In this document: in pieces, positions 1,307-3,772 of the stretch
Position numbering within the stretch: position 1 is the first letter of the stretch
How the letters are laid out: the number at the start of each line of letters is the position of its first letter
Source: a virus
Taxonomy: Duplodnaviria; Heunggongvirae; Uroviricota; Caudoviricetes
Virus record (IMG/VR): IMGVR_UViG_2698536506_000007
DNA length: 18,447 bases
Strand: one strand, 5' to 3'
Position numbers and translations under genes: made by a program
The notes under the pieces: generated by a model
Database searches by the model: none
The model's input: only the letters and a program-made list of their open reading frames with translations
What the model was told of the DNA's origin: nothing

Positions 1307-3772
1307 TTAAAAATCAACCTGACTCGGGATCAGTTTTTGCCAGATAGCTGAAACTTGTTTTGCCTGGTGGCGGGCATCATCCAGTGCATTATGGCGTACG
1401 CCTTCGAACGGAATAGCTGTTCTGGCATCGAAGTCTATGGCTTTTCCCAGATCAACGATTGTGCGCACATCGCGATCGTTGCAGTAACGCCACGGGCAGG
1501 GGATACCCTGCCGTTCATATGAACGGCGTAAAATCACGTTGTCGAAGCTGGCTCCATTTCCCCAGACCCGAACAAAAAATTCACCGGAGTTTTCGTCGAT
1601 AAATTCCCGCAATTGCAATAGTGCATCATCTAACGGAATTTGATTTACCAATATTGCAGATCTGGCCTCGCTGGACTGCGCCAGCCACCATTCGATTACG
1701 TCACCATCGGGAGTAGCACCTTTGTCCATTGCGTCAACCAGACTGATGACAACATAAAATATCGGTCCGATTTCCCCGGTCTGCGGATCGAAAAACACTG
1801 CAGCAATAACTACGATGGGCGCATTGCTGTTAATTCCCATCGTTTCAAGGTCGATCATCAGATGGTGCCATACCCTGCTGGTGGATGTGATAATGTGATG
1901 ACTGTTCACCGTAATTAAGGGATCTGCCGCCTCGCCAGTTTTACTATCGCTGGTGTGATGCTGATCGTTACCAGCATTCTCATTGTTCGGATGTTCAGCG
2001 CCTTCCATTTCCTCCGGATCATTTTCCTGAGTTTCAGCCTGATTCTCTTCATCGAATGTTTCCTGGTATGTTGCGTCGCCCATCACCGCGCCACAGTCAG
2101 GACAGTTGCCGCCGCCGGTCTGACCGCAGGTGGTGCAGACTTTTTCCGGTTCTTGTTGCTCTTCTGGTTCAGGCTGTTTCGTTTCTGGCTCGTTTTGTAA
2201 CGCATTTGGGCTGTTCTGTTCCGCTTTCTGGTCGTTTTGTTCCGATTCGGGCAGGTTCTGGTTCACAGAATCGCGGGTTTCAATCCCCTTAACCCATTTC
2301 GGATCATTCGGGTCGCTAATTCCGTCAACGAACTCACCGCGATGGACTGCCAGTATTTTGTCGGCATCAGGCTGGTTGATATTGGCTGCCTGCATAATTT
2401 TGTTTACTTCGTCAGCGGTAACTTTTACCTGTTTAACTGGATCTACCTGTTCCTGAGTATCCAGCGATTGCGTGTCCTGGTGATGTTCAGTTGTATCCGG
2501 CTCCATTGCTTCGGCCGTTGCCTGTTCATCTGCCATTGCGTCAGACGGTTGTGATTTTTCCTCATTATTTTTTTCTTCTTCTGTTTCGCGTTCAGCAGCC
2601 AGTTCGCGGTTAACTTCTTCCAGGATATCTTTTTCCGGTGTATGTCGTGCAGCAGTGAGAGTTTCCTTGCTGGGGTTCTCGTGATCAGTCTCCGTTAAGT
2701 GGGCGTTGATATACCCCTGAAGGCGTCCCGGGTAGTGATAAAACTCAGGGTGAGCGCTCCGGATAAGTGCAAAAATAGCGGCGCGGGAATAATCCAGAAT
2801 ACCCGGGGTTGCGCGAAGTGCTGCGGACCATTCTTTGAACGGACTTTCTCTTTTCAGGACGATTTCTTTTGCGCGACGATAAACGCTGCCCGGAATTTCA
2901 TAAATATTAAAATCCATCGGAAGTGTGGCTGCTGCAATCTCCACATCCAGCGTATCGAAGGTGTGTACTAAATTCGGATTGCGATCGGTTTTGTTCCCGC
3001 CACCGGCATTAGCACCGGAAGCCGTGCGGGTGATACGCGAAACACGATTTCCTTTCATCCACTCTTTTGTCAGCAGACCGCGATCGGTGTAGTCGGCGTC
3101 CAGGTATGCTTCGATAAAAGAGGTTATCAGTCCCAGGTCCGAATTTACGGGGGCGGGGAAAACTTTGTCAGTGTCTCGCACCAGTTTGTGGAGATCGCGA
3201 ATCTCCAGCGGTTCGAGTTGCGCTGCTTTATTTGAGATAGCCAGCGCGGTAACGGCGGGAAGTTTTTCATCCTGTGCGTTATGTAATGCGCGCAGTTCGT
3301 CCCGCGAAACGTGTGTGATCGGTTTTTCGCTGCCGTGCTGTGCCAGCCATCGAACAGGCAGAATCTGACCTGAAACCGGCAGGAGCATGTTCTCCTCAAT
3401 CTCAGTCATGTCTTCGCCGTTGACGTTGGTATTGTCAGTGTTGGCTGGTTTGTCCTGCGCAGAGGGTGAGGGCGCGATAAATACCATTGTGATGCCATCT
3501 TCCCCGCCTTTTTCGTAACGGTTACAGAATTCAGTATCAAACACGCCTTCAGGTGGAAGGTCATTCACAACGGGTAAATGGACGCGGACGGGTTTTTTAA
3601 AGTCGTCTTCATCATAATCGTTGTCATCCATTGCGGTAATGCAGCGGGAGATGGCAACAGATAATTTTTTTGCTGTAGTCCAGTAAAAACCACCTTTAAT
3701 TCCAAGGCGTTTTCTGACTTTGTCATTTTTTGCTTCACAATATAATGCAAATTCTTCTTTATCAGTGCTCAT
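1307..3772 (-). CDS. Large early-left nuclease (821 aa) of the kind annotated as exodeoxyribonuclease VIII; C-terminal DEDDh/DnaQ-like 3'-5' exonuclease domain, central acidic low-complexity region with a CxxC..CxxC zinc ribbon
   Basis: Long ORF with SD (GAGG 8 nt upstream of the ATG at 3770-3772). C-terminal motifs MIDLETMG (Exo I, D-x-E), [11 protein letters not shown] (Exo II) and HNALDDARH (Exo III, H-x4-D). [16 protein letters not shown] zinc ribbon. Position equals recE/exo in lambdoid prophages. Confidence 0.8.
   Translation of the reverse strand: [821 protein letters not shown]

Follow-up and report, generated by a model that had tools for sequence, protein, structure and literature searches.

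The 18,447-nucleotide (nt) stretch of viral DNA analyzed here (IMG/VR record IMGVR_UViG_2698536506_000007), referred to below as the window, is a Rac/Qin-like lambdoid prophage of Escherichia coli that is integrated beside yccA. Over 91% of its length, it matches E. coli strain C5 with 98.3% identity. On its minus strand, genes for DicB, a DUF1482 protein, a putative exonuclease, Xis, and Int follow one another, with the repressor/Cro/YdaT region lying further right. The exonuclease gene, with which the early-left genes end before xis-int, is the subject of this analysis. It is a real and intact open reading frame (ORF) of 821 amino acids (aa) starting with ATG, as described in the original prediction, which had been made from the DNA letters without database searches. 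The encoded protein is a chimera, in which the N-terminal part of RecE (exonuclease VIII) is followed by a complete exonuclease domain of the DEDDh type, the closest solved structure of which is exonuclease A (DexA) of phage T4. The same gene order, DicB-YdfD-exo-xis-int, is also present in phages mEp460_ev081 and vB_EcoS-640R1. The coordinates of the gene, of its parts, and of the neighboring features are given in Table 1.

Table 1. Coordinates in the window of the chimeric gene, its parts, and surrounding features
Feature	Position (nt)	Strand	Basis or remark
Chimeric exonuclease gene: RecE N-terminal module, linker, and DEDDh domain	1307..3772	-	Stop codon included; ORF list, translation, and Pfam/NCBIfam/PHROGs matches
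Folded RecE N-terminal module, three predicted subdomains (aa 1-375)	2648..3772	-	
PF06630 Exonuc_VIII match (aa 57-189)	3206..3604	-	Pfam, E 3.4e-28
RecE-N family core, most widely conserved (aa 240-370)	2663..3055	-	Outside every Pfam model
Acidic linker, largely disordered, common to RecE (aa 376-635)	1868..2647	-	Composition, model confidence (pLDDT), and RecE alignment
Conserved 20-residue peptide within the acidic linker (aa ~477-496)	~2285-2344	-	K-12 RecE alignment
Putative zinc knuckle, CxxC-x7-CxxC (aa 546-560)	2093..2137	-	Also in K-12 RecE, as CNACGQTGGDNCPDC
18-aa fusion linker, from the end of recE homology to the former standalone start codon (aa 621-638)	1859..1912	-	blastn
PF16473 DEDDh 3'-5' exonuclease domain (aa 636-811)	1340..1867	-	Pfam, pLDDT, Foldseek, and pentad conservation
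Chi octamer GCTGGTGG within the fusion linker (strand opposite the gene)	1877..1884	+	Position relative to the junction
Chi octamers, plus strand (start positions)	1877, 8292, 13608, 14698, 14755, 17611	+	
Chi octamer, minus strand (start position)	15340	-	
Excisionase-like gene (DUF4224), directly downstream of the exonuclease gene	989..1240	-	Prokaryotic Genome Annotation Pipeline (PGAP) annotation of the E. coli C5 prophage
Tyrosine integrase gene, reaching the window edge	1..1020	-	Beside the yccA attachment site in relatives
DUF1482 (YdfD-like) and DicB genes, upstream and co-directional early-left genes	3850..4373	-	Pfam and relatives' annotation

The C-terminal domain covers the whole of the Pfam model PF16473, named the Rv2179c-like 3'-5' exoribonuclease domain (model positions 1 to 177 of 177; E value, 9.9e-66), with a score of 221 bits against a gathering cutoff of 27. 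The catalytic pentad, assigned by motif and by alignment with DexA using the residue list of PMC12153337, consists of D641 and E643 (IDLE), D744 (SFD), and the H794-x4-D799 pair, and all three motifs named in the original prediction (D-x-E, FD, and H-x4-D) are thus present. They are also conserved among homologues, each pentad residue being kept in 76 to 78 of 78 homologous domains. These were drawn from the 80 loci of a distribution scan that took one genome per species and comprised 25 intact fusions, 2 disrupted fusions, and 53 standalone genes. The related model PF00929 (RNase_T/DnaQ) stayed below threshold (17.4 bits versus 24; E value, 0.0067). The label "DnaQ-like" given to the domain therefore holds at the superfamily level only, and profile scores place the domain specifically in the PF16473/DexA family rather than with DnaQ and RNase T proper.

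In an AlphaFold2 model of aa 540 to 821, the exonuclease domain is predicted with a per-residue confidence (pLDDT) above 90 and adopts an RNase H-like exonuclease fold. The top PDB match in a Foldseek search is T4 DexA (8ken/8kel; E value, 3e-11), with RNase T, REXO2, and oligoribonuclease (Orn) next, all top matches having a probability of 1.00, and DexA is the sole PDB match by sequence (E value, 7e-5). Domain search and structure prediction thus agree on PF16473 and a DexA-like fold for the C-terminal ~190 residues, with no PD-(D/E)xK domain, as had been predicted. Rv2179c of Mycobacterium tuberculosis, the founder of PF16473 and described as an exoribonuclease, belongs to the same Pfam family. 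DexA is the closer of the two, since Rv2179c is absent both from the PDB sequence matches and from the top 50 fold matches. DexA itself (8KEL/8KEN), closest by sequence as well as by fold, has the same pentad and belongs to the same family, but it shares only ~22 to 29% identity with the domain, is a standalone protein of 227 aa with extra loops, carries W152 where the chimera has a Cys, and comes from a lytic phage that degrades host DNA. The standalone homologues of E. coli and other enterobacteria are 58 to 79% identical to the C-terminal domain of the chimera.

The N-terminal part is derived from RecE. By BLASTP, aa 58 to 621 are 56% identical to residues 50 to 592 of E. coli K-12 RecE, and the homology ends at "ADP(L/V)I," which is the start of the PD-(D/E)xK nuclease domain of RecE, which has been crystallized (PDB 3H4R). 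In a review of the field, this nuclease domain is given as residues 564 to 866, and the N-terminal part of RecE is described as "of unknown function" (PMC11611040). The RecE equivalog model of NCBIfam (NF007259) matches aa 1 to 621 over model positions 1 to 603 of 877 and scores 893.5 bits, which leaves its cutoff of 1269 unmet. Of the PHROGs "exonuclease" families, phrog_607 matches over aa 1 to 754, and phrog_2082 (an 823-position profile) and phrog_20376 match over aa ~428 to 821. The gene had been predicted to sit in the slot of recE; it does occupy this position, and homology to RecE extends over the first ~620 residues of its product. Within the folded module, the segment from aa 240 to 370 is the one most often matched among family representatives and the sole part common to the mEp460_ev081-type, Stenotrophomonas phage, and Erwinia phage proteins.

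The region that connects the two halves is strongly acidic, with 12 to 14 D/E versus 0 to 5 K/R per 50 residues over aa 351 to 600, and aa ~564 to 631 are predicted by AlphaFold2 to be disordered (pLDDT below 50). The putative zinc motif, C546-x2-C549-x7-C557-x2-C560, is present, with a model confidence of only ~56, and it occurs in 6 of 83 long family representatives that are spread over all three classes of C-terminal architecture described below. Both the acidic linker and the CxxC..CxxC motif had been pointed out in the original prediction, and both exist, but they are not special to the chimera; as K-12 RecE has the two in common with it, they were inherited from RecE and are not new. A 20-residue peptide in this linker is identical in K-12 RecE despite the poor conservation of the linker around it, which makes it a candidate short interaction motif.

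The junction between the two halves is sharply defined. By blastn, DNA homology to K-12 recE stops at nt 1859 of the gene, and homology to the standalone exonuclease gene of phage mEp460 starts at nt 1915, the codon for Met639. The protein therefore consists of RecE(1-620), an 18-aa linker, and the whole of a formerly independent exonuclease ORF, and the junction coincides both with the boundary of the RecE nuclease domain and with the start codon of the standalone gene. The linker, which ends in HLM, is kept in the fused proteins of representative clusters that share less than 50% identity, and, to judge from these sequences, the fusion is old and maintained. No convincing Shine-Dalgarno sequence was seen before Met639. 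The mEp460 protein, gp26 (YP_007112100; positions 4546 to 5118 of locus L007), has the same domain, with 59.5% identity, and its gene lies in the same slot directly upstream of xis, but it is only 190 aa long and is without the RecE N-terminal module. The DexA-type exonuclease thus also exists alone in the same genomic slot of other lambdoid phages. A Chi octamer lies within the 54-nt junction (in the region of aa 630 to 632). Chi as the cause of the fusion was set aside, because it lies in the junction linker of only 7 of 24 fused loci.

The genetic surroundings of the chimera differ from those of recE. RecE of the E. coli Rac prophage (exonuclease VIII, b1350) shares the ~620 N-terminal residues, the acidic linker, the 20-residue peptide, and the Cys4 motif, and its gene has the same early-left operon position in a Rac/Qin-like prophage. 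However, it has a PD-(D/E)xK domain where the chimera has a DEDDh domain, and the locus of the chimera is without the recT, ralR, and rcbA genes of Rac, xis and int following directly, as they also do in 21 of the 25 fused loci. In every case examined (Rac, Gifsy-2, a Klebsiella phage, and mEp237), recT directly follows a recE gene of the PD-(D/E)xK type. Among the ORFs of the window, no member of the RecT, Bet, Erf, Rad52, or Gam families was found with Pfam or in the annotation of relatives. A phmmer search within 10 kb of the 80 DEDDh loci likewise found no K-12 or Gifsy-2 RecT, Bet, lambda-type Exo, Gam, or RecE nuclease domain. When 92 ORFs of at least 120 aa that lie upstream of the gene in the 25 fused loci and run in its direction were searched against Pfam, only helix-turn-helix, Rrf2, and YdaS-type regulators and a few unrelated families appeared, with no annealase family among them. 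The failure of the original prediction to identify a RecT/Beta-like partner in the window is thus confirmed and extends to related loci. Because the RecE nuclease domain has been swapped for a DEDDh domain and no annealase was found, the protein is not a RecET-type recombinase, and the absence of an annealase also supports the predicted departure from the role of Red/RecET systems. It is set apart in the same way from the two-component "SynExo" recombinases, in which an annealing protein is co-encoded. The 77-nt gap that precedes the gene contains no promoter-like site, and across the region such sites are not above chance. Together with the lack of a Shine-Dalgarno sequence before Met639, this led to the rejection of separate expression. 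As the gene lies inside the early-left operon without such a site of its own, it should be repressed in the lysogen.

The family defined by the RecE N-terminal module is small, with 217 clusters at 50% identity. When the C-terminal architecture of representatives of at least 450 aa was classed locally, which gives approximate counts, ~14 ended in a DEDDh domain, ~25 ended in a RecE-type nuclease, and ~44 matched neither nuclease domain, many of them having long unassigned tails; ten of the last class had no C-terminal Pfam domain. These nuclease-less proteins are the counterparts of those called "RecE-2" by Zheng et al. 2025 (PMC12315714). Examples are P0338, P0335, and P0394 and a protein of the Shigella Shiga toxin (Stx) phage 75/02 (locus L009, positions 3501 to 5549). 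The latter, of 682 aa, shares the N-terminal module, linker, and Cys4 motif with the chimera and is encoded directly upstream of gam-bet-exo. The N-terminal module seems to work on its own, and, since it occurs joined to a 5'-3' nuclease or to a 3'-5' nuclease as well as without any nuclease, it is an autonomous, swappable unit. RecE-2 relatives and DnaQ-type nucleases encoded near int occur in the same phage group and neighborhood as the chimera, but they are treated as separate genes in PMC12315714, without further analysis, while the chimera has both in one polypeptide.

The PF16473 domain is found in 729 phage records, lytic phages included, mostly as a standalone gene. Intact fusions are present in Escherichia (E. 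albertii and E. ruysiae), Buttiauxella, Dryocola, Enterobacter, Pluralibacter, Atlantibacter, Kluyvera, Klebsiella, Citrobacter, Phytobacter, and Kosakonia, that is, in at least 11 enterobacterial genera, and the fused forms make up 14 clusters at 50% identity. Because the fusion is intact in 25 species-level loci across these genera and clusters, it appears to be maintained by selection. It is also intact in culturable phages (mEp460_ev081, Tritos, HannyBb, and Evi), and a match over at least 80% of the gene is present in 1216 of 5426 complete E. coli genomes (~22%). Homologue searches with the C- and N-terminal parts returned mostly partial E. coli proteins, since the gene is repeated in multiprophage genomes and breaks assemblies, and the diversity of the family was therefore taken from the representative library. 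In the closest relatives of the prophage, E. coli RM11911 (L001, 16001 to 18466) and C5 (L002, 2807 to 5173), the gene is annotated as two pieces, an "exonuclease" coding sequence and a "RecE family" pseudogene, and disrupted copies occur in Shigella and Enterobacter bugandensis. Resident prophages thus seem to lose the gene easily. Among the 53 standalone loci, at least 21 have an integrase within 10 kb.

Copies of 59 to 78% identity also occur in metagenome-assembled genomes assigned to Veillonella parvula (L012), Geobacteraceae (L037), and Actinomycetes (L054), as well as in records labeled Chryseobacterium (L083) and Streptomyces (L089, a 502-bp contig). Exonuclease genes under such labels of unrelated phyla most likely lie on misbinned or contaminating contigs.

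RefSeq names close relatives of the protein "exonuclease" or "3'-5' exonuclease," and families of PHROGs match as well, whereas many phage records label them "exodeoxyribonuclease VIII." The databases thus catalogue the family, but no paper that describes or tests a fusion of the RecE N-terminal module with a DEDDh domain was found in the literature. Each half is known separately, and the RefSeq name is correct at the level of "3'-5' exonuclease."

The window contains seven Chi octamers (GCTGGTGG), versus 0.57 expected from shuffled sequences (~12-fold), and six of the seven are on the strand opposite the gene. The same bias is seen in related prophages. On the prophage side of 24 fused loci (251 kb), 112 Chi sites lie opposite the gene, compared with 26 on its own strand, versus 23 and 12, respectively, in the host flank of the same loci (168 kb), so that Chi is ~3-fold denser in these early regions than in the adjacent chromosome. 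Zheng et al. 2025 (PMC12315714) describe lambdoid phages that have no Rec module as rich in Chi and as benefiting from RecBCD instead of being harmed by it. Nuclease genes of the DnaQ type near int are noted in that study without being analyzed. The window and the related prophages fit this class of lambdoid phages with no Rec module and high Chi. The trend in Chi is in the expected direction and is not decisive, and any connection of Chi with the DEDDh gene is no more than suggestive.

These features may be explained by a chimeric early-left nuclease in which the nuclease of RecE, and recT with it, gave way to a DexA-type DEDDh exonuclease that processes 3' DNA ends in a RecBCD-dependent phage, a reading to which we give about an even chance. 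In this protein, the N-terminal module of RecE, with its three folded subdomains, acidic tether, and putative Cys4 knuckle, has been retained, while the 5'-3' PD-(D/E)xK domain has been replaced, together with recT, by a complete DexA-type exonuclease. By homology, the enzyme would remove nucleotides from 3' ends by two-metal catalysis. The substrate would most likely be DNA, because the closest characterized relatives, T4 DexA and the E. coli protein EcD, are DNA exonucleases. The enzyme would be expressed from the early-left transcript during induction or infection and would not be one half of an exonuclease-annealase pair. Since the prophages that carry it have no Rec module and are rich in Chi sites oriented for action with RecBCD, the enzyme would most likely serve in the trimming of 3' tails or other end processing for recombination and replication that depend on the host RecBCD and RecA proteins, and the RecE module may serve as a shared tether to some partner or site. 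Phages carrying the chimera probably depend on host RecBCD.

Several points weigh against this reading. Both the 3'-5' polarity and the substrate are assigned by homology, and exonucleases of this polarity usually act against homologous recombination instead of favoring it (PMC12315714). The sole experimental datum on an E. coli homologue, EcD, concerns defense against T4 and not recombination (PMC12153337). The nearest prophage relatives carry the gene in split or frameshifted form, and it must therefore be dispensable, at least in the lysogen. A small control set of phage loci that have both the RecE N-terminal module and an annealase (four RecET loci and Stx phage 75/02) also has Chi, with seven sites opposite the gene and none on the same strand in 41 kb. 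Finally, the exclusion of Erf, Rad52, and Sak4 annealases applies to same-strand ORFs of at least 120 aa.

The main rival to end processing is an anti-phage role like that of EcD (HREX). EcD is a DexA homologue of E. coli that is reported to digest T4 DNA bearing 5-hydroxymethylcytosine (5hmC) and not unmodified DNA and, when plasmid-borne, to protect against T4 (Kang et al. 2025, PMC12153337). By analogy, the chimera would be an exclusion nuclease that protects the lysogen or the induced cell by selectively degrading the DNA of superinfecting T-even-like phages, which carries 5hmC or a similar modification. Like EcD, the C-terminal domain of the chimera belongs to the PF16473/DexA family, and prophage ends are common sites of defense genes. 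However, EcD was studied as a short protein, neither a prophage context nor a RecE-type N terminus being mentioned in PMC12153337, and the signature of its residues for 5hmC recognition and tetramer formation is not reproduced in the chimera. The equivalent of DexA W152, which recognizes 5hmC by stacking, is C764, the only Cys in this column among 78 homologues; W occupies the column in 15 of the 25 fused homologues and in 35 of the 53 standalone ones. The equivalent of D90, which forms the tetramer in DexA and is Ala in EcD, is kept as D716, and this column holds D or E in 24 of the 25 fused proteins. For DexA D169, D780 and D782 are nearby, but the alignment is unreliable in that loop, and a comparison with EcD at position 78 gave answers that conflict depending on the alignment. 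The EcD accession, HAK9828821.1, is not among the members of the nine clusters of homologues examined. Repression in the lysogen, expected from the operon position and the promoter-free upstream gap, also argues against a protective role, as do the lack of a hit with the PADLOC models and the abundance of the family in lytic phages. An anti-phage function is accordingly possible, but we regard it as doubtful.

A further-reaching form of the end-processing reading, which we think unlikely, sees the RecE module as a portable tether that brings interchangeable nucleases to one DNA end or host partner, the options being a 5'-3' PD-(D/E)xK nuclease, a 3'-5' DEDDh nuclease, or none. The 3'-5' version would be a phage-encoded helper of host RecBCD in Chi-rich lambdoid phages that have neither an annealase nor Gam, blunting 3'-tailed ends so that RecBCD could load and run to Chi.

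It is quite unlikely that the protein instead works as a 3'-5' exoribonuclease in the manner of Rv2179c, of RNase T, or of the ISG20-like TONDO proteins. The RecE part would then be an auxiliary domain, and the enzyme would act on the 3' ends of host or phage RNA, for instance, to turn over RNA while the phage grows lytically or to exclude RNA phages. The name of PF16473 and the strong fold matches to RNase T, REXO2, and oligoribonuclease would agree with this, and a precedent is provided by prophage-borne DEDDh exonucleases with unrelated auxiliary domains that block MS2 and Qbeta (2026 preprint, PMC13344964). Nevertheless, the best match by sequence and structure is the DNA exonuclease DexA, the RecE scaffold elsewhere carries a DNA nuclease or precedes gam-bet-exo, and the TONDO proteins come from ISG20-based searches limited to proteins of less than 500 aa (PMC13344964). 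That the gene is a decaying fusion without function, the remnant of a deletion in a defective prophage, is very improbable. The two-piece genes of RM11911 and C5 and the disrupted Shigella and E. bugandensis copies would suit such an origin, but the 821-aa ORF of the window is intact, as is the fusion in 25 species-level loci and in culturable phages, the catalytic residues are conserved, and the linker is kept among clusters less than 50% identical. An ordinary RecE, that is, a 5'-3' double-stranded DNA exonuclease partnered with RecT, is suggested by the "exodeoxyribonuclease VIII" labels of relatives and by the NCBIfam match to aa 1 to 621, but it is ruled out by the domain content, with no similarity to the RecE nuclease domain, by a match that stops at model position 603 and falls short of the cutoff, and by the absence of recT.

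Further genes were noted in the window. Between the cI-like repressor gene (7257 to 7655, minus strand) and the early-left genes, a HigB-type toxin gene (6546 to 6848, plus strand; PF09907; E value, 5e-33) and an HTH_3 antitoxin-like gene (6851 to 7210, plus strand) lie on the opposite strand; E. coli C5, the closest relative, carries a different gene at this position. Two ORFs of the early-left region, of 211 and 215 aa (4674 to 5309, plus strand, and 5472 to 6119, minus strand), are annotated as "hypothetical protein" in relatives and were matched neither by Pfam nor by PADLOC.

Recombineering relies heavily on RecE, and many phage records give the name of this enzyme to close relatives of the chimera. 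For the chimera, the label "exodeoxyribonuclease VIII" is wrong with regard to both polarity and pathway, so that a common misannotation is corrected here. The occurrence of the fused form in about a fifth of complete E. coli genomes, including strains bearing Stx phages, points to a frequent early phage function. The "bacterial" DexA homologues that have been proposed as a defense against T4 may turn out to be early genes of prophages, at least in Enterobacteriaceae, because the standalone genes share the slot before xis and many of them lie near an integrase. The link to Chi-rich prophages without a Rec module provides a testable handle on how phages use the RecBCD of their hosts. If the RecE module does act as a portable tether, the RecBCD-helper strategy of these phages would be the opposite of that of lambda, which is to inhibit RecBCD and bring its own recombinase.

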